NCBI GenBank assembly: GCA_036004365.1
Contig: DASYRN010000045.1
Location: 7,637-71,636, forward strand
Source of the DNA: Candidatus Binatia bacterium
GTDB lineage: Bacteria > Desulfobacterota > Binatia > UBA9968
DNA length: 64,000 nucleotides
Direction of reading: 5' to 3'
This document shows positions 22,119 through 51,845 of the stretch, one piece after another. Numbering within the stretch: the first letter of the stretch is position 1; each line of letters starts with the position of its first letter. Made by a program: the position numbers and the translations under genes. The notes under the pieces were generated by a model. It saw only the letters and a program-made list of their open reading frames with translations. It was not told the origin of the DNA and searched no databases.

Positions 22119-23032
22119 GCGATTTGCAAAAAAATGCTGAAACCACCGAAGAGTTGCCCAAGGCAAAGGTCAAGATAAAGAGATGGAACTTTCCCGTCGT
22201 CTGGATTGTTCCCGTGATTGCCGCCATTGTTACAGGCTATCTTGTTTACGATCGCGTGCAGGAGTTTGGTCCGAAGATCACGATCAGGTTCAAGAACGGC
22301 AGCGGCCTTAAGATCGGCCAAACACCAATTAAGTATCGCGGCGTGCAGATTGGCGAAGTGACGGCGGTTGAATTGAGCGACGACCAGCAGAACGTGCTGG
22401 TGAAGGTACGACTGCGCCGCTCGGCGGCTTCCATTGCCCGGGAAGGAGCGGTTTTCTGGATCGTGCGTCCCGAAATGGGACTTTCAAACATCGCTGCCTT
22501 GGGGACGGTCATTACCGGACCGGAGATTGCGGTATTGCCGGGCACTGGCAAGGACCAAGCAGAATTTGTGGGTCTGGAGAGTTCGCCGGTGGTAGTAGAA
22601 GGTAATGAGCTGAAGATCGTTCTGGTCTCCGGCCGTGCCGGGTCATTGATAGCGAGTTCGCCGGTTTACTATCGGGGCGTCGAGGTAGGCACCATCCAAG
22701 ATATTCAGCTCAACAACGACGCCCGCACGGTGAACATCCACGTGTTCATCAAGCAGCGGTATGCGAACCTGGTCCGGAGCAGCTCGAAGTTTTGGAATGT
22801 AAGTGGCGTGGATGTGAGCATCGGCTTGTTCCGCGGCATGGAAATCAATATGGAATCGCTGAGATCGCTGGCGGTCGGGGGAATCGCCTTTGCCACCCCG
22901 AACGATCCAAAAGGCAAGCCGGCGAAGGACGGGATGGTATTTCCCCTTCACGACAAATCGAATAAGGAATGGTTGGAGTGGGCGCCGAAGATACCGATTC
23001 CACGGGAGAAACAGTTAGAGAAGTCGAGATAA
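22115..23032 (+). CDS. pqiB: MCE/MlaD-domain protein (PqiB-like, about two MCE domains)
   Basis: 305 aa with an N-terminal TM. Repeated MCE text (GLKIGQTPIKYRGVQIGEV ; LIASSPVYYRGVEVGTI). Confidence 0.7.
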   Translation: MSDLQKNAETTEELPKAKVKIKRWNFPVVWIVPVIAAIVTGYLVYDRVQEFGPKITIRFKNGSGLKIGQTPIKYRGVQIGEVTAVELSDDQQNVLVKVRLRRSAASIAREGAVFWIVRPEMGLSNIAALGTVITGPEIAVLPGTGKDQAEFVGLESSPVVVEGNELKIVLVSGRAGSLIASSPVYYRGVEVGTIQDIQLNNDARTVNIHVFIKQRYANLVRSSSKFWNVSGVDVSIGLFRGMEINMESLRSLAVGGIAFATPNDPKGKPAKDGMVFPLHDKSNKEWLEWAPKIPIPREKQLEKSR

Positions 23033-23352
23033 GTTCGATTAGCGGCGGATCTGTGTCCAGCCTGATAGGACCTATTTCCCCTTGCGGTAACACAACACGC
23101 ACCGATTTTTTGCAGTCCTAATTCCTTGCACCTGGGTGAATATTACCCTTCTTGACAGCTTGATCTCTCTCAAATATCGTCAAGCTATCATTCTTCAAGA
23201 TTAGTATTCGGTGGTATGAGTGACGGCCGAATTTTTTTTGCTTTAGGACTGCATCGTAGGTGGTCAGTGGAAATTTCCGCGGATAGAAACGGCCGAAAAC
23301 AAAAAATGAGCAGAACAACGGAATCCACATTGAATTAGTTGAGGAGGTAAAA

Positions 23353-23604
23353 ATGCCACTTTTTATGGACATCCACAGGAAAGCAGACGGAATAACGTCC
23401 CAAGCGCTCGCCGAGGCACACCGTAAGGATCTTGCCGTGCAGGGAAAGCACGGCGTCAAGTTCGTCAACTACTGGTACAATGAAGGCGAGGGCGCGATTT
23501 TTTGTTTGTGCGAAGCTCCAAGTAAAGAGGCGGCTGAAGCGGTACATCGCGAGGCTCACGGTGAGTTAGCAGACGAAATCATCGAGGTTAAAGAGGGGTC
23601 GTAG
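23353..23604 (+). CDS. DUF4242 (SCO4226-like) small protein
   Basis: 83 aa. MPLFMDIH...A..AH..DL..Q.KHGVKFVNYWYNE..G.IFCL.EAPS.EA. Strong RBS GAGGAGG. Confidence 0.7.
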   Translation: MPLFMDIHRKADGITSQALAEAHRKDLAVQGKHGVKFVNYWYNEGEGAIFCLCEAPSKEAAEAVHREAHGELADEIIEVKEGS

Positions 23605-23791
23605 CAAGCTGAGGGAGCCATGAAACGATCCGCAGGTTCTTCGATCACCCACAGAAAAGCGGTCAGCCCTTGAAAACATGAATTCTGCTTTGCTGAGGCT
23701 GCGCTGGCACGAGGCCGGTTGATCGAGTATCCGAGCATCCTGAATCGATTCCGGGTTTCCGAAGCCCTTCCCTGTTTCACCGCCGTTCAAC

Positions 23792-24025
23792 ATGACCCTT
23801 TGCAATCACACAACGCTCGAACTGTTACCTGAAAAGAAAAAAAGAGTGCGGTGCCGGCACTGCCACCTGATCCTAGACGGCGAGGAGCTGGGAGATGGCT
23901 ATTGCCCGGAATGTTTTGAGACGTCCGGCAAGAAGCAATATGACTTCGAGGATATGGAACCCGAAAGGGGAGGGGTCGCCCGCTACAGATGCGAAGAGTG
24001 CGGTGCCATCGTTGAAAGCGCGTAG
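23792..24025 (+). CDS. zinc-ribbon protein (three or four CxxC pairs)
   Basis: 77 aa. CRHC...CPEC...CEEC. Confidence 0.5.
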   Translation: MTLCNHTTLELLPEKKKRVRCRHCHLILDGEELGDGYCPECFETSGKKQYDFEDMEPERGGVARYRCEECGAIVESA

Positions 24026-24133
24026 TAAACTACTTGGCGCTACTGTGCCATTGAGTTTGTCTCGGACAAACTGTGATCAGGAGGACGGGTTCACAGATCA
24101 GTCAGGCAGCAAAAACCGCATGGCGAACAAGGA

Positions 24134-24295
24134 TCAGTAGCTTTCCACCGGTGATTGGGGGCGGATCTCTCCTGTGATCGGATCTTCACCCTCAACAGGT
24201 GGCCCGCCTCGCTTTTTCTCTGCCTTGCGCTGCTGGCGGCGAGCGACCTTTTCTATTTGCTTCTGCCGGCGCGCCATCTCCTTCTGGCGTTTCAT
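24134..24295 (-). CDS. possible 53-aa Lys/Arg-rich protein (below the ORF-track cutoff)
   Basis: Hand translation gives MKRQKEMARRQKQIEKVARRQQRKAEKKRGGPPVEGEDPITGEIRPQSPVESY. It competes with + ORF 24155-24382. Confidence 0.3.
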   Translation of the reverse strand: MKRQKEMARRQKQIEKVARRQQRKAEKKRGGPPVEGEDPITGEIRPQSPVESY

Positions 24296-24383
24296 GTAAG
24301 TTTGATTTCCCATACGGATAGATTAACACATACCAAAGGCAACAGGAACCGCCTCTTCAAAGAAAGCCGCGTTAAAGTATAAA

Positions 24384-24410
24384 GGGGCGTACTGATCTAC
24401 GCCCCTTTTT
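24384..24410. terminator. intrinsic-terminator hairpin (GGGGCGTA-loop-TACGCCCC) flanked by A and T runs, usable from both strands
   Basis: AAAGGGGCGTACTGATCTACGCCCCTTTTT lies immediately downstream of the RRM gene. Confidence 0.6.
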
Positions 24411-24431
24411 GCTTAGATTCTACAAGATAGG

Positions 24432-24746
24432 CTACCAGCGGTCGCGCCTGCCACCTCCACCGCCACCCCTTCTATCCCCACCGAACCCTGACCGCTTCTC
24501 CTGAGGCCGCGCCTCATTGACAGTGAGATTGCGCCCGTCGAACTCGGTTCCGTTCAGAGCCTGGATCGCTTTCTGGGCCTCCGCGCCGGAGCTCATCTCG
24601 ACAAAACCAAAGCCCTTGGACCGGCCGGTGAATTTGTCGGTGATCACCCGGGCGGATTCGACGGTGCCGTGCGCCGAGAATAGTTCCTCGAGCTGCTTGT
24701 CGGTGGTCGCGTAGGACAATCCACCTACGTAGACTTTATTCGTCAT
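24432..24746 (-). CDS. RRM (RNP-1) RNA-binding protein with Gly/Arg-rich tail
   Basis: RNP2 VYVGGL, RNP1 KGFGFVEM and a C-terminal GGDRRGGGGGGRRDRW tail. ATG at 24746 after AAGGAGG. Confidence 0.85.
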   Translation of the reverse strand: MTNKVYVGGLSYATTDKQLEELFSAHGTVESARVITDKFTGRSKGFGFVEMSSGAEAQKAIQALNGTEFDGRNLTVNEARPQEKRSGFGGDRRGGGGGGRRDRW

Positions 24747-25307
24747 GTTCTCCTCCTTTAGAAAAATGTTAGTGTCTTTCACCCTGGAATCTGATTACCG
24801 CGGGAGCAGAACATGGGGTTGGAACCCAGCGCTGGCCGGATTATCCTCCAAGGTAATACTTCGCAAGGAAAGACTCCCCCCGAGCCTTAAACTTTTATCT
24901 GTCTCACTTTCAGAAGGCCCCATACTGAAGTGACTTTAGCTTGTCTTGTTTGCCCTCTCGGTGCAACGGAGCCGGGCGCGTCCTTTATCGTGCAGACGAC
25001 GGCTCGACACGAGCCCAAGTCACTATCATTCTAGGGTCGTCCGACGCAAGAGGTAGGCGGCGCGCAAGAAAACGTTGGAACAGAATGCGCAAAGAGGCCA
25101 AGAGCTTTTTGAGCGATATAAAGGGGTGTAGGAAGCCTCCGATAGTGCCTATTAATGTCGTGTTAATGGAAGGGGAGGTTGGGTCCTCCAGGAACCAAGC
25201 ATGCTTTATGAAACGCGATCGTATCCTTTCGATGGTGGTCTCTGGGTCCGACCAGCACCTAAGGCGCATCGACTCCGGAAGAATTATTTTAACCAACCGG
25301 CGACCGT

Positions 25308-25321
25308 TTGAGAATTCTCAA
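25308..25321. repeat. 14-bp perfect palindrome TTGAGAATTCTCAA, copy 1
   Basis: Read directly. Shared flanks are CG-TTT on the left and GA(A)G(G)TCAAAA on the right. Confidence 0.9.
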
Positions 25322-25613
25322 GAAGGTCAAAATGAACAAACGCGTCAAAGATGACGTTTTTGCAATTGCGAGAGTACGAAAATGTGGTTTGAAGCCTGTC
25401 TAGCGGATCTTCTTTTATAAACGCAGTGGATGTCTGTCAAGTAGGAAAAAGGAAAAAAGGGGAGGATTTCCGAAATATCCAAAAAGCCGCGATCGTGGTC
25501 GTGAAATGTGATCAGGCAGCAGGCCGCGTTGGCGGAATAGCAAGGCAACCGATTTAATCGAGGTTTAAAAAAAAAGCTTGACAGCCCGCGCGACCGCGAT
25601 ATACCTAGGTCCC

Positions 25614-25901
25614 ATGACCGGCATGGAACTCATAAAGCTCAGAAAGCGACTGTCTATGACGCAAACCAGTCTCGCCCGCGCCGTCGGAATGAAGAGAAAA
25701 TCGGTCATTCTCATGGAGCGGGGAGAGGAGCCCATCTTAAGGACCACCGAGCTGTCGGTGAGGCTGCTGCTGCTGAAGAAGCAAGCTGCGAGGTTCGTAT
25801 TGCGGATAAAAGGGAGAAGACGCTATAGGCCCCGGCCGCGGCAAAACGGAGCTTCACTGTCAGAAATCTTGTCGCATCTTTCTACAGATAGACGGGAATA
25901 A
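25614..25901 (+). CDS. XRE-family helix-turn-helix protein
   Basis: LIKLRKRLSMTQTSLARAVGMKRKSVILMERGEEP. TTGACA at 25578 and TATACC at 25600 sit directly upstream, so the transcript may be leaderless. Confidence 0.65.
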   Translation: MTGMELIKLRKRLSMTQTSLARAVGMKRKSVILMERGEEPILRTTELSVRLLLLKKQAARFVLRIKGRRRYRPRPRQNGASLSEILSHLSTDRRE

Positions 25902-25989
25902 TCCTGACTGGCTTGAGGAGAAAAAAAAGAGACAGGCCATTTTTTCGTTGAAAACGGAAAGCTGACAACGGAAAAAGCTGCCAGCGTTT

Positions 25990-26229
25990 TCATTCCTTTC
26001 GGGCCTTTTCTCCACTTTCCCGTATTCTCTTACCGGCCTCTTTCATTGCCTCGCCGGCTTTTTCCATCGCTTGACCCGTTTGTTCCTTGGCCTTCTCCAT
26101 TGCTTGATCGACAGCCTTGCCCGTTTTTTCCATAGCACCTTTATCGTCTTCGGATTTTGAGCAGGAGCCCAAGGCAAGCGCAGACAGTCCGACGAGCAAT
26201 GCCAGGCACACGTTTTTGATCAGCTTCAT
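25990..26229 (-). CDS. small lipoprotein with AMEKxG(K/E)A repeats
   Basis: Signal peptide plus lipobox MKLIKNVCLALLVGLSALALGSC. RBS GGAGGG. Repeated KAVDQAMEKAKEQTGQAMEKAGEAMKEAGK. Confidence 0.55.
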   Translation of the reverse strand: MKLIKNVCLALLVGLSALALGSCSKSEDDKGAMEKTGKAVDQAMEKAKEQTGQAMEKAGEAMKEAGKRIRESGEKARKE

Positions 26230-26384
26230 TTGTCGGTTACCCTCCTCGTCCAAGTCTTAGTCTAATCCCTATAATAAAAACTCTTGGCACACAAGAAAGG
26301 TTTCTTGACAATCTGGAAGGTTGCGGAATGGGTTGGTTCTCTTAATGTCACAGGGGTTAAAATCCCGTCGGGATGCCACTGGCA

Positions 26385-26666
26385 TCAGTCGGATGCCTTT
26401 GGTTTCGGCGGCCCCGGATATCGGGTAGCAGCCTGGTTTGAAAAGCCATCTAATGCGGCGAGTTGACGCGCGAGGTCGAAGATGGTGTTCTCGATGGCCA
26501 TCCTGGAGGCCTCAATCTCATCGAGCGTTGATCGCGCTATCCCTACCGCTTCCACGAGCTTTACTCCCTCGGGCCGCCTTGCCAGTATCGTGAGACGGTA
26601 ATCGGCCTGGAAAACGCGCCAGTTGAGATAGACGCTTCGCACCTCAGCCTGTAGGTCTGAGGACAT
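26385..26666 (-). CDS. hypothetical protein, possibly the 3' part of a degraded gene
   Basis: 93-aa ORF. The reading frame stays open upstream of the ATG and neighbouring frames carry related-looking text (see findings). Confidence 0.35.
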   Translation of the reverse strand: MSSDLQAEVRSVYLNWRVFQADYRLTILARRPEGVKLVEAVGIARSTLDEIEASRMAIENTIFDLARQLAALDGFSNQAATRYPGPPKPKASD

Positions 26667-27091
26667 ATACCGGATCGAAACGGGAGCAGCGGGATCGTCC
26701 TCCAGGACGTAGAAAAGCGCCCGGCCGACGTGGTACTCCCCCCACTTAACTCCGGAGTATCGACACTTCCCACAGCTCGGCGAGAGCCGGATCGACCTGC
26801 ACCTTTACCCTTCGCTCTGGCGGAAGCTGGTAGCGCTGGTCGAAGAGGACCGTTTGGCCTCAGGCGCCAAGCCCGAGCGAAAGGAAAAACAAAGTGAAAA
26901 GGGAGGTCTTGCTCATGAGACGATCTGCAATTTCTTAGCATCTCTCCTAAAAGAGTAAAAGCCCCCGCAAGATAAAGGATGAAGGATAAGGGAAAGATGC
27001 TCATAAGACAGCGGACTTTCGGGGCCGTTCAAAGAATTTTGCTGGTGGCCACATCGAAGCTGTGCTATGTTGGTATGAAATTTTGAGAGCG

Positions 27092-27793
27092 ATGCGAAAG
27101 ACAGGTTTTGCTGCGCGAGATTTTCTCTTCTCGTGCCGATTGATTGTTTTCTGCTTATTTTCTCTATCTTGCTCTATACCCCCGAAGATTCCCACAGTTG
27201 CCGATGAGCGGCTCGAGGCCATGGTTAGAAATGAGGCCTCCGAGATCATAGAAGTGACCCCGGATAAAGAGGAGCTTTCTCGGTATCAGATTTTTCTGTC
27301 AGCCTTTCCCCGGAAGGATATATTAGGAGTGAGTGTCGGGAACCGTCGTATTTATATCAGTTATGAGCTGGTACAACTCGCGTTCAACAGTCCCCGCTAT
27401 CGTTGGCTGCTGAGGCAGACCTTGGCCCACGAGATTGCGCATGAAATAGCGGGGCATGCGAAAGATAGGCGAGTTGTCTCCTACAGTCCTTTTACGTTCG
27501 GCCGCGGCGTGACAGGCGGAGATATCGGCCTTCCGTCGAGCGTGCGATTCCATCATTATTCGGCGGAAAAAGAACTGGAGGCGGATTTAAACGGAATGAA
27601 GTACTGGAGAAAGCTTCAGTGGGACTGCCGGATCTGGGTGCGCATCTTGAGGCAATATTTTCAGATCAACTACACGGGCGATATTTTTCATCCGACAGAC
27701 GAGCGCCTAAGACAAGCATTGAGCGTGTGCCTTCCAGAGTCAGATCCGGAGCGGATCGCTATAGAGAAGAGACTCGAGGCAGTGAGGAGGTAG
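27092..27793 (+). CDS. M48-like zinc metalloprotease (HExxH) with N-terminal membrane/signal segment
   Basis: LAHEIAHEIAGH motif and a downstream E (EKELEAD). Confidence 0.6.
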   Translation: MRKTGFAARDFLFSCRLIVFCLFSLSCSIPPKIPTVADERLEAMVRNEASEIIEVTPDKEELSRYQIFLSAFPRKDILGVSVGNRRIYISYELVQLAFNSPRYRWLLRQTLAHEIAHEIAGHAKDRRVVSYSPFTFGRGVTGGDIGLPSSVRFHHYSAEKELEADLNGMKYWRKLQWDCRIWVRILRQYFQINYTGDIFHPTDERLRQALSVCLPESDPERIAIEKRLEAVRR

Positions 27794-32164: not shown

Positions 32165-32523
32165 GATCTCTAGTCTTTTTTCAGAGGTCAAAATAAATAG
32201 TAGATGAGCGTGCTCGATCCTGCCATTGTCTCACGTTTGCGTGATTGCGACGAAGAAACAGTGGCCTGTCGGCCCGGATATCTGAGCGGTCGGGGACGGA
32301 TACTCCTCCTGCGTTGTCTCTAACCGAATTTCCGGAGAGTTGTTCATAATTGTCATATTGGACGGTTTCGGTCCACTTACCACGAGCCCTTATTCGACTT
32401 GTGAGCGGGAAATCCTTTTTAAAAACCACATATTGTATTGATAGGCCAAAATAAGGGCCTTTGGCATGAATTATGAATCTTATCCACTATATAGGCCCAT
32501 CTATCTTAAGAGAGCGATCCCTT

Positions 32524-33954
32524 ATGCGAGACGTCGCAATAGCAACCGAGGCAGCATCACTTTCCAAGGAATGTCCTGGATGTGGCGCTCTCCTGGAACT
32601 GACTCTCGAGGCGTGCTGGAAATGCGGCGGAAAAGTCGAACCGGATATTCCCACAGCGCCGTACGAAGAGAAACGACCCTTCAAGCCCTATCTAGACAGA
32701 AGCGCCGACCTTGGAAGAGAGGTCTACGAACGGCTTATCCAAGCCTTTTCAGAAGTGAATCCCCGCGAAAGACCCTGGTGTGGCATAGGGGTTAAAGCTG
32801 ACCTTCTCGCGGTATCACCAAGATCCGTGACAGTCGCGGTGATAAAGGAGCTGAGCGGGGTCAAGAAAGGCCTCGTTCATGTCTCGCAGAATTGGCGGGA
32901 ACCTTGGCAGGTAGAAACCGTCGATAGGGAGAAACATCAGATACGAAGCAATCCTTGCGAGCAGGCGGAGCGGGCGATCAGCGCTGTCAAAAGTAGTCTC
33001 AAGTCTTTTCTCAAGGCCAATGAGCAGGCTGTATTCCCGCGCATAAAGTGTTTAATCGTTTTCCCCGATGGATACGACTTTGAAGGGCCAAAGGATTTTT
33101 CCATGCTCGACCACGACGGGGTGATCACGCTGAGTCTACTAAACTTTCGTGATTTACCGGATGCGATATTACGACCGACGGACCACGAAGGACTGGATTC
33201 CCGGCAGTACAGGAAATGGATTGAAGAACTTCTAAGGAGCAACGATGAGTCCACCCTCGGGACATGGCTTGATCCGGCCTTCGATAAGCCGGAGCCGGAG
33301 CCGCCCAAGAGACAGCTCTGGCGGTTACGTTATCCGCGCCGCCGAAAAGTGCCGGCAAAGGAAGAGGAACTCTCTTGGTCAAATAGTCCGCGAAAGAGAT
33401 CGGTCCAGGCGAAATTGAAGGGGACTCGACTCAAATTTACCGTGACGGTTATCACGGGTATGCTCGTTGGAATGGTCGGATGGCAAATGTATAGTGTTGG
33501 GGAACATACCGCGCCGCCTCCACGCGCGGAAACTACCCCTGAAGTCACTCAAGCGGTGCCACCCCAAGATGTCCCGTTGTCAACGGAACTCGAGAAGGAG
33601 GAGATATTGCCTCCGCCGCAGCCAGTAGAATCCCGCGAACCGCAGGCGCCTATAGCGCCGAAAGAGGATCAACCCATCAAAGGCGCGAATAAATCTGAGG
33701 TCACCCGCACTCAGGCTCCTGGCGATTTAGAGCTCAAGCGGCAGAAGGTGGAACTCAAGATCCATGATGCTATTCTCCGTCGCGCGATCACCGGTGTGAC
33801 GGTTTACTTCGCCGGGGACACGGCTTACCTCCGCGGCCAGGTCGAGACCGAAAACCAAAAATCTGCTGCCGAAAAGGCCGCGAGGAGCGTCCCGGGGGTT
33901 AAGGAAATCCGCAATTCAATTGAGGTCAATCCCCCATCCCCTGCGGATGGCTAG
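32524..33954 (+). CDS. Zn-ribbon / NERD-like / TM / Pro-rich linker / BON domain fusion protein
   Basis: CPGCG..CWKCGG. NERD-like text ADLLAVSPRSVTVAVIKELSG....W.....NPCEQAERAISAVKSSL. TM LKFTVTVITGMLVGMVGWQMY. C-terminal BON text VTVYFAGDTAYLRGQVETENQKSAAEKAARSVPGVKEIRNSIEV. Confidence 0.65.
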   Translation: MRDVAIATEAASLSKECPGCGALLELTLEACWKCGGKVEPDIPTAPYEEKRPFKPYLDRSADLGREVYERLIQAFSEVNPRERPWCGIGVKADLLAVSPRSVTVAVIKELSGVKKGLVHVSQNWREPWQVETVDREKHQIRSNPCEQAERAISAVKSSLKSFLKANEQAVFPRIKCLIVFPDGYDFEGPKDFSMLDHDGVITLSLLNFRDLPDAILRPTDHEGLDSRQYRKWIEELLRSNDESTLGTWLDPAFDKPEPEPPKRQLWRLRYPRRRKVPAKEEELSWSNSPRKRSVQAKLKGTRLKFTVTVITGMLVGMVGWQMYSVGEHTAPPPRAETTPEVTQAVPPQDVPLSTELEKEEILPPPQPVESREPQAPIAPKEDQPIKGANKSEVTRTQAPGDLELKRQKVELKIHDAILRRAITGVTVYFAGDTAYLRGQVETENQKSAAEKAARSVPGVKEIRNSIEVNPPSPADG

Positions 33955-34030: not shown

Positions 34031-34486
34031 TCAAGTTTGATTACTAATGAACTGAAATATCTTTGCAGCGGCGTCAGCGCCGGTCGTCGTTGTCGTGTCG
34101 ATTCTTATAGTCGGATTGTTCGGCGGCTCCATTCGATGGAACATGATGTGGAGTGCTTTTTCGGATATATTCGGCTGCCGTTCTCGATTGCGCCGAAGAG
34201 CGACCTCTAAGGGGCAATCAAGAAAAACGGTTACAACTCTCTCCGCTTGTGCCCGCGCTTTGACCTGGCACCGCCATTCCTTTTTGTAAAACGTGGCGTC
34301 AAAAATTAGGAAATCCGTTCTCCTCCGATCGGGCGCCAGCGCATTGAAAAACTTCCGGTAGACCGGCGGTCTTAGCCTGTCGGAACTCAAGATCTGAACG
34401 CTGCCTAATTCAGCGAGGCGCTCGGCCAGCTTTTCTGCTATCGTACTCTTACCCGATCCGGGAATGCCGCAAAAGAGAATAATCAA
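34031..34486 (-). CDS. P-loop kinase, KTI12/PSTK-like (AAA_33-type)
   Basis: Walker A ILFCGIPGSGKST. The later text LIFDATFYKKEWRCQV...FLDCPLEVALRRNRERQPNISEKALHIMFHRMEPP resembles archaeal O-phosphoseryl-tRNA kinase / KTI12 as I recall them. Confidence 0.7.
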   Translation of the reverse strand: MIILFCGIPGSGKSTIAEKLAERLAELGSVQILSSDRLRPPVYRKFFNALAPDRRRTDFLIFDATFYKKEWRCQVKARAQAERVVTVFLDCPLEVALRRNRERQPNISEKALHIMFHRMEPPNNPTIRIDTTTTTGADAAAKIFQFISNQT

Positions 34487-34514
34487 TAAGATATGTTCGT
34501 GACGCCGCGCTGGG

Positions 34515-34772
34515 CTATCGGCGGGGTCGGGCGAGCCTCATCGCTTGCTCAATGGTGGGAATGATCTCGGGGCAACATTGCCTGGCGATTTCGAGAATGA
34601 TGCGCGCTTGGTTCTGGTCACAGGGGATCGTGTAGCCTTTAAAAAATACGCCCTCAAACGAATGATCAATTCGCGTGGCCTTGGCAATGGCCTCATAGGC
34701 GGGAGACTCAACGGGAATTCGACTCCGCAGTCGGTCAAAGTGTGGAGGAGCGACCTTAATGAATATCTCCAT
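34515..34772 (-). CDS. hypothetical protein
   Basis: 85-aa ORF between the kinase and phosphatase genes on the same strand. Confidence 0.4.
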   Translation of the reverse strand: MEIFIKVAPPHFDRLRSRIPVESPAYEAIAKATRIDHSFEGVFFKGYTIPCDQNQARIILEIARQCCPEIIPTIEQAMRLARPRR

Positions 34773-34894
34773 GGCGCCACCTCACCAAAAATACGTTAGG
34801 ATGCTCAATTCAACCTACCAAATAGGGCCGTTATTTCAATGCGGGTCCGTCAACCTTCACCGGTCGAGTTTCCCAAAACCCGCTCGTCAAGGCA

Positions 34895-35350
34895 TCACAC
34901 TCTAGTAGCAAAACGGATCGCATCGATATTAGGTAAGCAAGAGCGGCATTGGGTGACGTGTGCGACGGCGGCGTCCAAATCCCAGCCGCAGCACCAAGAG
35001 AGATACGCGACCGCGACCGTAGGAGATCGGCCAGCGCCGGCGGAGCAATGGAGATAGACTGTATGGCCAGACTCCATGAGCTCGTTTAGCGCGGACACGC
35101 ACGCCGGGAGCTTGTCTTGCAGATCGACTGGGTCCAAGTCGCGCACTGGGACACGACAAGGGTGAATGCGGCAGATTTGGTAGTGGGTTGCCAGCGAATT
35201 CCAATCCAGGCTAAAGTGCTGCATGTCCTCGTCGGTTTGTAGATTGAGCACAGCCGAAATGGCGGCATCGCGCTTTAATATCTCGATGTCACCAGCGCTT
35301 CCTGGGTAGGAACCGACAAAGAGTTTGGAAAGAATCTGATGGTAATCCAT
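34895..35350 (-). CDS. dual-specificity (Cys-based) phosphatase, DSP domain only
   Basis: Active site HCSAGAGRSPT (HCx5R[ST]). Flanking text NLQTDEDMQHF, VRDLDPVDL..KLPA and RSCLPNIDAIRFAT resembles plant SEX4/LSF glucan-phosphatase DSP domains from memory. Confidence 0.8.
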   Translation of the reverse strand: MDYHQILSKLFVGSYPGSAGDIEILKRDAAISAVLNLQTDEDMQHFSLDWNSLATHYQICRIHPCRVPVRDLDPVDLQDKLPACVSALNELMESGHTVYLHCSAGAGRSPTVAVAYLSWCCGWDLDAAVAHVTQCRSCLPNIDAIRFATRV

Positions 35351-35444
35351 AGCTTGGGTAGGTCGTAAGGAGTGAGGCGTAAACAGGAGAACCCCTTGCA
35401 CGTTTTACGTTTCACTAGCCATGACTATCATCCTGACGTTACGG

Positions 35445-35666
35445 TCACGGACTCTCTTTGACGGCGAGAAGTGAGGCCAGCGGGCACAACACTTTGTATT
35501 CGGCTTTGCCTGTTTTTTCTTTCCAGCTGGCGGCGCCTGGAGCTCCGTCAATGAATTCGTAAGCATCCACGCCGAATGTGCTTTTACCGTCAATCAGCAG
35601 GACTTCGTGCCATCCGTCGGCAAGCAGCACATAACGCACTTTCTCTACATTGAGCTTCAGAGCCAT
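35445..35666 (-). CDS. hypothetical protein
   Basis: 73-aa ORF, first gene of the same-strand run 35666->34031. Confidence 0.4.
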   Translation of the reverse strand: MALKLNVEKVRYVLLADGWHEVLLIDGKSTFGVDAYEFIDGAPGAASWKEKTGKAEYKVLCPLASLLAVKESP

Positions 35667-35808: not shown

Positions 35809-36117
35809 ATGTGGTATCTGATCCATCGTAAGCCCATACGACCGCGTGAGGAATGGACCGTGAGTCTCGACGAGCATCTTGTCTGGATGAAACAGCAGCA
35901 CGAGGCCGGCCGGATCCTTTTTTCCGGCCCGACCCGGGATCGCACGTTGGGGATTTACGCGATACGCGCCGGCTCCAGGGAAGAAGCCGAGCGGATCGCC
36001 GGCAGCGATCCTTACACGAAGGCCGGTTTCTGCGCTTTCGAGCTTTTTGAGTGGGAGGTGCACCAAGTTTTGGGCGTCGGGCCTTTCACGTCCGCCGAAT
36101 TGCGCGCCCATCGCTAG
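35809..36117 (+). CDS. YciI-family protein
   Basis: 102 aa. RiLfSGPt....G.yaIRAgSrEEAerIAgsDPy. Confidence 0.8.
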   Translation: MWYLIHRKPIRPREEWTVSLDEHLVWMKQQHEAGRILFSGPTRDRTLGIYAIRAGSREEAERIAGSDPYTKAGFCAFELFEWEVHQVLGVGPFTSAELRAHR

Positions 36118-36200: not shown

Positions 36201-36950
36201 TTAAGAAGGGTTCTTTCTTGTGGGAGGAACGATTCTAGCCTGTTCGATGGCGGGTTTGGCCGCTTCCTTATGAGGGCGAGCTAGCTGGTCTGGAGCGTCG
36301 GTCGTTTTAGGCTGACCTTCTATTGTTTGTCTTAGAATTTCCTCTTGCAGCGAACCTTTATTGTTCCCAGCTACGGGCTTTCCCGTCTCAATGTCGTCAT
36401 TGATGAAAACTGCGGCTGCAAAGACAGTCGTCCAGAGCCCATCTTTATTGCCAACGGCAGACTGAGTGATATTGGTAGTACGGACGATCTTGCCGGACAT
36501 CTTGAAAAGTTGCTCGCGCTCGTCCCAATCCAATTCAGGATCAAATTCAATCCCCAGGGTAGTCGCGAGCATGCTGGCGGCGAGGTCTTCCGCATATTCT
36601 CCCGCTCGTTCATCGGTTTCTCCAAACGAATGATGCTCGGAAAGATAACCGTGCATGGAAGAATCCGCGGGGATCGCCAAGCCGATAGAAGCTGCGATGA
36701 GACGATTTGGCTCGTTGTTACTTTCTCGATCATAAACGGCAAATACAATCTCTCCGGGCCGTAAGAGCTTTAATCCTTCCTCCTTGGAGATAATCTTGCA
36801 GGCTGGGGGATAGATGCTGGAGACGAGAACCAAATTGCAGTGGGCCAAGCCGGCAACCCGCAGCGCCATCTCAAAGGAGGCCAACCGTTCCTTATGAACG
36901 CCGACTCCTTTGGTGAAAAAAACTTTCTTAGGAACCATATGTGGCTGCAT
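36201..36950 (-). CDS. pdaD: pyruvoyl-dependent arginine decarboxylase with about 70-aa C-terminal extension
   Basis: [44 protein letters not shown] carries the Ser-Ser self-cleavage site. Start is 36950 or 36938. Confidence 0.85.
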
Positions 36951-37076
36951 TTTAACATGACGAAAATGAGCTGACAAGAAAATTTCTTATCCTGAGATTA
37001 TTTTTATTGACATTCGCTTGCTCATGATCTAGAGGCTTAACAAGATCACCAAAACAAGTTGGAGGAGGTATCCACG

Positions 37077-51197: not shown

Positions 51198-51845
51198 CTA
51201 AAATTTCTTCCACGGGTTGATCCCCAACTCTACATGCTTTCGGTATAACATGGCTACATAGATAAAATCGAAAATGAATATGGACACATAAAGAAAGTTC
51301 AGAAGAACCGAGGCGGGAAAGCGAAGAAAAAACAGTATCGACGGCAATAAAGTTCCGAGCATCTTAAATAAGGCTATATAAATCGACTGGCCACTCACGT
51401 CTCTCCGATTCAGCAGCATCGATATAAACAAAACAGACATCATAAGATTTTGCCCGAAGGCTGCGTACTTGCCGTCCCAGTCTTTGAACTCATAGGTTAT
51501 GGCCAGGATGGCGCCAAAACTTAGGATTAGCGTTACAAGGAAAGTAAGATAGAAAAAGCGCGCCGGCAGTATTTGATTCAAGGCCTTCCCTCCGAAGCGG
51601 AGAGTTTGAAAGACGATGATCGTATCAAAGGCAAACCAAGCGATATTGATATAATTCTGAGGAGGCTCGTGCGGGTGCATGAAGGAAAATATAAATTCCC
51701 AGGAGATATTCGCCGATAGAGCCGCTACCGGCATCCCATAAGTCTTGTCCTGGAATCCCACTCGGAGGATCAAGATATAGGCCAAGGTCCAGAAGACTCC
51801 CGATCCGATCTGCAAGCTCAAGCTTATCTCAGGAGGAACCGCCAT
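51198..51845 (-). CDS. multi-pass membrane protein resembling PaxB/Pyr4-type transmembrane terpene cyclases (tentative)
   Basis: 215 aa with about 6-7 TM helices. FWTLAYILILRVGFQDKTYGMPVAALSANISWEFIFSF resembles W..NY......F.DETYGM....L..NI.WE of fungal PaxB as I recall it. Confidence 0.5.
   Translation of the reverse strand: MAVPPEISLSLQIGSGVFWTLAYILILRVGFQDKTYGMPVAALSANISWEFIFSFMHPHEPPQNYINIAWFAFDTIIVFQTLRFGGKALNQILPARFFYLTFLVTLILSFGAILAITYEFKDWDGKYAAFGQNLMMSVLFISMLLNRRDVSGQSIYIALFKMLGTLLPSILFFLRFPASVLLNFLYVSIFIFDFIYVAMLYRKHVELGINPWKKF

Follow-up and report, generated by a model that had tools for sequence, protein, structure and literature searches.

A Candidatus Binatia gene run with an LSF2-like phosphatase and a PSTK-like kinase is probably a juxtaposition of independent units

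Four consecutive genes on the minus strand of a 64-kb stretch of the genome of a Candidatus Binatia member, an uncultured soil bacterium (contig DASYRN010000045.1; "the window" below means this whole stretch) encode, in order, a 73-amino-acid protein (ORF73; ORF is short for open reading frame), a dual-specificity phosphatase (DSP), an 85-amino-acid protein (ORF85), and a P-loop kinase. A preliminary description of the locus proposed that these genes form a tightly spaced operon whose kinase and phosphatase, both from families that are unusual in bacteria, act on a non-protein substrate, with the two small proteins as adaptors. The four ORFs lie where that description placed them, and the motifs quoted for them (HCSAGAGRSPT, GIPGSGKST, LNLQTDEDMQHF, and RNRERQPNISEKALHIMFHRMEPP) are all present:

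35666-35445, minus strand: ORF73, 73 amino acids, a member of an uncharacterised small-protein family
35350-34895, minus strand: the phosphatase (DSP), 151 amino acids, stand-alone, placed by profile in the glucan-phosphatase (LSF2/SEX4/LSF1/laforin) clade
34773-34894, minus strand: the DSP-ORF85 spacer, 122 nt, the boundary of two blocks with different histories
34772-34515, minus strand: ORF85, 85 amino acids, a small conserved alpha/beta protein
34486-34031, minus strand: the kinase, 151 amino acids, TTG start, a minimal P-loop kinase

The gaps between the genes are 94, 122, and 28 nt, so the run is only partly as tight as had been described. ORF73 (with AAGGAGG 6 nt 5' of its ATG) and ORF85 have good Shine-Dalgarno sites, and neither enzyme gene has one. 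A GTG at 35401 is a possible upstream start for the DSP; the MDY start is the one used by family members and by the GenBank protein. The flanking genes, YCII (35809-36117) and NERD-BON (32473-33954), are both on the plus strand. No terminator-like site was predicted between the four genes, and the sole terminator-like hairpin on the minus strand of the run, at 34022-34007, comes after the kinase. To call the run an operon is an interpretation of this layout, not an observation.

The four proteins are identical to GenBank proteins HEV8341688-91 from a Candidatus Binatia metagenome-assembled genome (MAG), which are named "AAA family ATPase," "hypothetical," "dual specificity protein phosphatase family protein" (HEV8341690.1), and "hypothetical." Each has homologues (403 matches for the kinase, of which about 90 are close family; 238 for the DSP; 40 for ORF85; and 97 cluster representatives for ORF73), so the four ORFs are genuine genes. 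The window as a whole is ordinary chromosome: ribF, rho, rpsB, tsf, pyrH, uppS, dxr, and rseP come first, and mixed accessory genes come after them. The window contains no glycogen genes, genes of the selenocysteine (Sec) pathway, or tRNA genes, and no structured RNA, riboswitch, or tRNA was found in the intergenic gaps or elsewhere in the window (no Rfam match).

We examined gene order at 80 DSP loci from GTDB genomes and at 80 kinase-pattern loci from metagenomes, 37 of which (counting L003) hold true members of the kinase family, at 40% identity or above. At each locus we looked for the four proteins and the flanking genes. Of the DSP loci, 73 have 1.5 kb or more downstream and 45 have 5 kb or more on both sides; of the 37 kinase-family loci, 24 have at least 1 kb upstream. 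The kinase, ORF85, and ORF73 were found at none of the 80 DSP loci, which come from Acidobacteriota, Planctomycetota, Gammaproteobacteria, Binatia, and Desulfobacterota-type MAGs. Conversely, the DSP was found at none of the 37 kinase-family loci and ORF73 at none of the kinase loci; except for two contigs described next, ORF73 is missing from all 160 loci. Searches with hidden Markov models (E < 0.01) found no distant kinase in the DSP loci and no distant DSP in the kinase loci.

Only L001 and L002 hold both the DSP and the kinase; their proteins are 88-97% identical to those of the window, and their neighbourhood is wholly syntenic with it (HU, arginine decarboxylase, YCII, NERD-BON, and glyoxalase). 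Because the proteins are so similar, these two contigs cannot show selection for linkage. In the Binatia MAG DASTOD01, the kinase is on contig 23 (63% identity), where it adjoins NUDIX and glyoxalase genes, and the DSP is on contig 413 (65% identity), unlinked to the kinase. Homologues of ORF85 at 80-83% identity have neither the DSP nor the kinase nearby. The expectation that the four-gene neighbourhood would recur across genomes is not borne out: in every genome distant enough to be informative, the pairing is absent.

The closest relative, L001, differs from the window within the run itself. The DNA alignment breaks inside the DSP-ORF85 spacer, with 93% identity in the upstream block and 86% in the downstream block. 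The spacer is 449 nt in L001 (5315-5763) versus 122 nt in the window, and the roughly 325 extra nt encode a predicted 59-amino-acid lipoprotein (MNKFRSLICAILALSVFLTFSGC..., with the lipobox LTFSGC) between the DSP and ORF85. Only the 75 nt directly upstream of ORF85 are kept between the two spacers (83% identity), and these may mark ORF85's own promoter region.

We consider it likely that the run is a lineage-specific juxtaposition of independent units and not a conserved kinase/phosphatase system. The first unit would be a stand-alone 151-amino-acid, cysteine-based, LSF2-type DSP. The second would be the pair of ORF85 and a kinase that resembles the N-terminal domain of PSTK (O-phosphoseryl-tRNA(Sec) kinase). 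ORF73 would be a third, unrelated unit. We infer that the units are transcribed independently and are not functionally coupled.

The phosphatase had been likened to the plant starch phosphatases SEX4 and LSF, without their carbohydrate-binding module (CBM), and our comparisons agree. The window DSP matches Pfam's DSPc (54.6 bits). We built a family profile from 22 members (alignment A2) and searched it against all PDB sequences. The best match was LSF2 (4kyq; 148 bits, E = 2e-42), followed by LSF1 (128 bits), SEX4 (126 bits), and laforin (93 bits), whereas the best DSP outside of the glucan phosphatases was VHR/DUSP3, at 58 bits, and the lipid phosphatase PTPMT1 scored 47 bits. Over 150 residues, with one gap of a single residue, the window DSP shares 39% identity with the LSF2 DSP domain from Arabidopsis. 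Neither it nor its family has a CBM (by Pfam or family matches). Judged by this gap in profile scores, the bacterial family is either sister to the glucan phosphatases of plants and animals or closely related to them, with LSF2 the nearest.

We mapped the numbering of LSF2 onto the alignment, with landmark residues taken from PMC5779698 and PMC12892837. The register is valid because Y135, W136, D161, F162, C193, and G230 land on the expected letters of LSF2. Conservation was counted over 78 bacterial members of the family. The catalytic loop of the window DSP is H101-C102-SAGAG-R108, with D71 as the general acid; across the family, the catalytic Cys and Arg are each conserved in 78/78 members and the His in 76/78, while the general acid is Asp in 71/78 and Glu in the other 7. 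The catalytic machinery (Cys102 as nucleophile, Arg108, His101, and Asp71) is predicted to be intact. The family has both the HCx5R motif with an upstream Asp and a specific kinship to glucan phosphatases over generic dual-specificity phosphatases (DUSPs). In the R-motif, the Cys is found in 75/78 members and the Pro in 77/78.

Glucan phosphatases have a PTP-loop (protein tyrosine phosphatase loop) signature of C-zeta-A-G-psi-G-R, where zeta is hydrophilic and psi is aliphatic. The bacterial family reads C-[T/N/S]-A-G-[V/I/A/M]-[G/N]-R (A in 68/78, G in 78/78, V/I/A/M in 66/78, then G in 46 or N in 18, then R), and the window protein reads CSAGAGR. At the position of LSF2's F162, 67/78 members have Phe; in the window protein the residue is Leu72. 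The position of G230 is mostly Ser or Ala.

LSF2 itself has an alternative to a CBM, namely an aromatic channel (Y83/Y85/Y135/W136/F162), surface binding sites, and a C-terminal (CT) motif (PMC5779698). The bacterial proteins start at LSF2's Met91 and stop about 40 residues short of its C-terminus, so they lack Tyr83 and Tyr85, the CT motif, and the surface binding sites. The window DSP has neither a CBM nor this LSF2-style set of features.

In comparison to LSF2 (PDB 4KYQ/4KYR), the bacterial proteins share the DSP fold family, the motifs LNLQxDxD, RxPxxDFD, HCSAGxGRxP, and R-x-C-x-P-N, and the lack of a CBM. Most of them also share a small residue at the G230 position and a Phe at the F162 position. 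Unlike LSF2, they have no transit peptide, and Y135, W136, and F162 are replaced by His, Phe, and Leu in the window protein. SEX4, LSF1, and laforin belong to the same clade by the family profile. SEX4's Phe140 corresponds to Phe46 of the window DSP and its Phe235 to a hydrophobic residue, Leu139. Unlike these three proteins, the window DSP is a single domain without a CBM48, a CBM20, a PDZ-like domain, or any other extra domain. We also considered a PTPMT1-type phosphatidylglycerophosphate (lipid) phosphatase, as described from Rhodopirellula (PMC3576122), and rejected it given the low PTPMT1 score relative to LSF2, the lack of a transmembrane segment, and the lack of a basic CX5R loop.

Members of the DSP family were found in 86 stretches of GTDB species-representative genomes, on contigs as long as 5.98 Mb. 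They come from Acidobacteriota, Planctomycetota, Gammaproteobacteria (Arenicellales and Acidiferrobacterales), Binatia, Desulfobacterota-type MAGs, and one Nitrospiraceae MAG. Because the family spans these hosts on such long contigs, eukaryotic contamination is excluded. These proteins, which are 37-68% identical to the window DSP, form a minimal LSF2-type family that is rare but phylogenetically broad in bacteria. Glucan phosphatases have been published as absent from bacteria (PMC2714694), with the criterion being a DSP and a CBM in one protein, and the absence of laforin from bacteria was repeated in a 2025 paper (PMC13011383). Our literature search found no description of bacterial SEX4/LSF2-like phosphatases, and bacterial phosphatases of the SEX4/LSF type appear to be undescribed.

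Clustering the neighbours of the DSP across the 80 loci identified no partner that is shared across phyla. It returned clade-specific synteny only, such as an ABC transporter and SfsA in Gammaproteobacteria. In this block (L046, L048, L053, L063, L068, L071-L073, L077, L078, and others, from Arenicellales and their kin), an ABC transporter ATPase and an ABC-2 permease lie about 0.6-1.4 kb downstream of the DSP and an SfsA-like gene lies about 2.2 kb downstream (17-25 loci). This arrangement, the sole recurrent context of the DSP that we saw, probably reflects synteny within the clade.

The kinase had been likened to PSTK and KTI12, and this comparison holds up as well. It matches Pfam's AAA_33 (56.3 bits) and KTI12 (PF08433; 50.2 bits versus a cutoff of 22), and both matches pass, with the KTI12 match limited to profile positions 3-143 of 271, which is the N-terminal half. 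When a profile of the kinase family (alignment A1) was searched against PDB sequences, the best solved relative was PSTK from M. jannaschii (62 bits, residues 5-170 of 260), with APS (adenylylsulfate) kinase at 52 bits and the solved Kti12 at 22 bits. An AlphaFold2 (AF2) model of the kinase has a pLDDT of 93.5. Foldseek ranked PSTK first for this model (E = 3.9e-10, 26% identity, TM 0.75); APS kinases superpose on it equally well (TM 0.78-0.83), and gluconate kinase comes after them. For neither enzyme, then, are the best matches generic: the kinase is PSTK/KTI12-like and the phosphatase is SEX4/LSF-like.

The active-site motifs of PSTK are GxP(G/A)xGK(S/T), Asp41, and RNxxR (Sherrer et al., PMC2275090). 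When aligned to the M. jannaschii enzyme, the window kinase has G7-IPGSGK-S14, D36 (equivalent to Asp41), DATF, and R99-N-R-E-R103. All of the N-terminal motifs are accounted for (GIPGSGKS, D36, and RNRER), and the DxTN motif of PSTK reads DATF. The C-terminal three-helix tRNA-binding domain is missing, as the kinase ends at residue 151. That domain, which occurs only in PSTK and Kti12, is where these proteins mainly bind tRNA, and Kti12 needs it in the same chain (PMC6511879). PSTK also co-occurs with SepSecS (PMC2275090), and the window holds no Sec-pathway gene. The window kinase resembles the N-terminal (DxTN-family) domain of PSTK and KTI12, and its scores against NCBIfam's PSTK models are about one-sixth of the cutoffs (TIGR03574, 49.2 versus 290.5; TIGR03575, 52.4 versus 382.35). 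In size and in its single-domain build, it is like APS kinase (CysC), gluconate kinase, and the bacterial DxTN kinases. Most members of its family are labelled "adenylylsulfate kinase-like enzyme" by JGI. Unlike an APS kinase, it scores just 41 bits against NCBIfam's apsK (cutoff 139), and there are no sulfate-assimilation genes nearby. Bacteria make Sec with SelA and have no need of a PSTK. The kinase is neither a PSTK nor a KTI12, even though the kinship that had been noted is correct. Most likely it would transfer the gamma-phosphate of ATP to a hydroxyl of a small molecule or of a nucleic-acid end.

As for whether the two families are unusual in bacteria, that remark may stand for the phosphatase, and does not for the kinase, as Sherrer et al. 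had already listed bacterial DxTN kinases of unknown function in 2008 (PMC2275090).

Within the kinase family, Cys6 and Cys91 are invariant, and the family has a motif of its own, DATFYKKEWR (A1). Cys6 is directly before the P-loop and Cys91 is just after strand 4; the two may be close in space, which would be a possible redox or metal site. Besides ORF85, the genes that recur near the kinase are a divergent Amidohydro_2 gene and genes for NMT1-type binding proteins, and together these do not form a coherent pathway. A distant subclade (L103, L105-L108, and L110-L113; 40-44% identity; from sediment and hot-spring metagenomes) has a conserved neighbourhood of its own, with a 183-amino-acid NYN/LabA-like protein and a 557-amino-acid AMP-dependent-ligase-like protein (both resemblances judged by eye) and a small lipoprotein. 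This neighbourhood is unrelated to the context in Binatia. We also considered a role in anti-phage defence and rejected it: PADLOC gave only P-loop-level matches for the kinase and none for the other three proteins.

ORF85 has an alpha/beta make-up, and its Cys51, Cys67, and Pro68 are invariant. In 9 other loci it immediately precedes the kinase gene, and in 2 further loci the two are about 4 kb apart. Most loci of the kinase family have no ORF85 (L003, L085-L089, and L103-L120), and L165-L169 have ORF85 but no kinase. This partial association is the only recurrent one in the run. ORF85 has no similarity to the C-terminal domain of PSTK or Kti12. Genes of the ORF85 family also recur near BON-domain and CBS-domain genes (L165, L169, and two JGI contigs), and on one contig a glycogen debranching enzyme (GDE_N/GDE_C) and a gene of the alpha-amylase family are about 1.6 kb from the ORF85-family gene.

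ORF73 belongs to a family of 70-100-amino-acid proteins with the motif VLLADGWH..V...STF..DAYEF...CPLTSILAV (97 cluster representatives at E <= 1e-3; alignment A5; P0300-P0396). None of 26 members has a Pfam match. The motif may also exist in repeated form, since it matches at 8 separate places in one 2365-amino-acid protein, P0304. The family is widespread, and ORF73 is unrelated to the other genes of the run. The proposal that both small proteins are adaptors fails: outside the window's close relatives, ORF73 is never found with either enzyme, and ORF85 is found with the kinase only, in part of the family.

What does the DSP act on? By homology, its most likely substrate would be a phosphorylated carbohydrate, such as a phospho-alpha-glucan (glycogen) or another phospho-glycan. 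We keep this assignment tentative because there is no CBM, CT motif, surface sites, or glucan-gene context, and we consider it rather unlikely that the family consists of genuine minimal glucan (or other glycan) phosphatases. Several observations weigh against a glucan substrate. The aromatic channel is only partly preserved (in the window protein, Y83 and Y85 are missing, Y135 is replaced by His, W136 by Phe, and F162 by Leu), and the positions of Y135 and W136 vary across the family. Genomic context does not support it either, as no glycogen or starch genes were found near the DSP in the 80 clustered loci or on two long contigs with Pfam labels. These same features speak for the DSP being instead a protein phosphatase (acting on phosphotyrosine, phosphoserine, or phosphothreonine) or a lipid phosphatase with only ancestry in common with the plant enzymes, and in one planctomycete the DSP is beside PAS histidine kinases and a SpoIIE phosphatase. 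However, the DSP is far nearer to LSF2, SEX4, LSF1, and laforin than to protein or lipid DSPs by profile score, the F162 position of its family is usually Phe and the G230 position is small as in LSF2, and the family's PTP loop, C-[T/S/N]-A-G-[V/I/A/M]-G-R, is without the basic residues of PTPMT1 (PMC3576122). A protein or lipid substrate is possible, if doubtful.

The linkage of the genes raises two other alternatives. ORF85 and the kinase could be a toxin-antitoxin pair like epsilon/zeta, with a small antitoxin upstream of a P-loop kinase toxin. ORF85 does lie 28 nt upstream of the kinase, this adjacency recurs in the 9 other loci, and the kinase matches Pfam's Zeta_toxin (25.5 bits versus a cutoff of 22.3). 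But this match covers the P-loop only (residues 2-40), as do the PADLOC matches, and at 151 amino acids the kinase is about half the size of a zeta toxin. Its relatives are headed by PSTK and APS kinase rather than by zeta or PezT, and the pairing is not obligate, as each gene is found alone in many loci. This makes a toxin-antitoxin pair very improbable. The other alternative is the one originally proposed: a single operon for a phosphorylation/dephosphorylation cycle that acts on a glycan or on the end of a tRNA or RNA, where ORF73 and ORF85 would serve as adaptors. The run is on one strand between opposite-strand flanks, with no internal terminator-like site; both enzymes appear to be catalytically competent; and relatives of both families act on non-protein substrates. 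Nevertheless, the pairing is missing from all informative relatives, whether the DSP or the kinase is taken as the starting point, and the two are unlinked in DASTOD01; the nearest relative has an extra gene between the DSP and ORF85; ORF73 is never found with either enzyme elsewhere; and the kinase lacks the main tRNA-binding domain, which in Kti12 does not act in trans (PMC6511879) and which ORF85 does not resemble. We consider this cycle to be quite unlikely.

We prefer the juxtaposition of independent units, and some considerations count against it too. With all four genes on one strand and no predicted terminator between them, co-transcription is possible. A recently assembled operon can work without being conserved. 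Both families are present in Binatia genomes, and cooperation in trans would be beyond the reach of a test based on gene order. Also, the kinase contigs from metagenomes are in many cases short.

The window has other features that are separate from the run. A pyruvoyl-dependent arginine decarboxylase (36201-36977, minus strand; PvlArgDC, 203 bits) has a C-terminal extension of about 65 residues past the 161-165-residue family models. The flanking NERD-BON protein (32473-33954, plus strand; 493 amino acids) has an N-terminal zinc-ribbon-like CxxC pair, a NERD domain, a predicted membrane segment, a Pro/Glu-rich linker, and a C-terminal BON domain, and has a counterpart at 59% identity in L169. 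A 215-amino-acid protein (51198-51845, minus strand) matches Pfam's Pyr4-TMTC at 104 bits, in a Binatia genome; Pyr4-like transmembrane terpene cyclases are best known from fungal meroterpenoid pathways. The region 23000-27100 has no long ORFs. No notable repeats or RNAs were found in it, and it holds a cluster of small genes that includes:

24432-24782, minus strand: an RRM-type glycine-rich RNA-binding protein
23792-24025, plus strand: a zinc-ribbon protein
25990-26253, minus strand: a small Lys/Ala/Glu-rich lipoprotein

As a kinase/phosphatase system the run is not supported, and it gives no basis for studying a new cycle of tRNA or glycan phosphorylation. The kinase is a compact and well-modelled addition to the long-known "bacterial DxTN kinases of unknown function." What is notable is the phosphatase family: CBM-less, LSF2-like DSPs in several bacterial phyla. 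This family touches on whether bacterial storage glucans are phosphorylated and on the origin of the plant starch phosphatases. If its members are glycan phosphatases, then, contrary to the published absence of glucan phosphatases from bacteria (PMC2714694, echoed in PMC13011383), some bacteria would reversibly phosphorylate glycogen or another polysaccharide, and bacteria would include relatives, or even the source, of the plant SEX4/LSF lineage.

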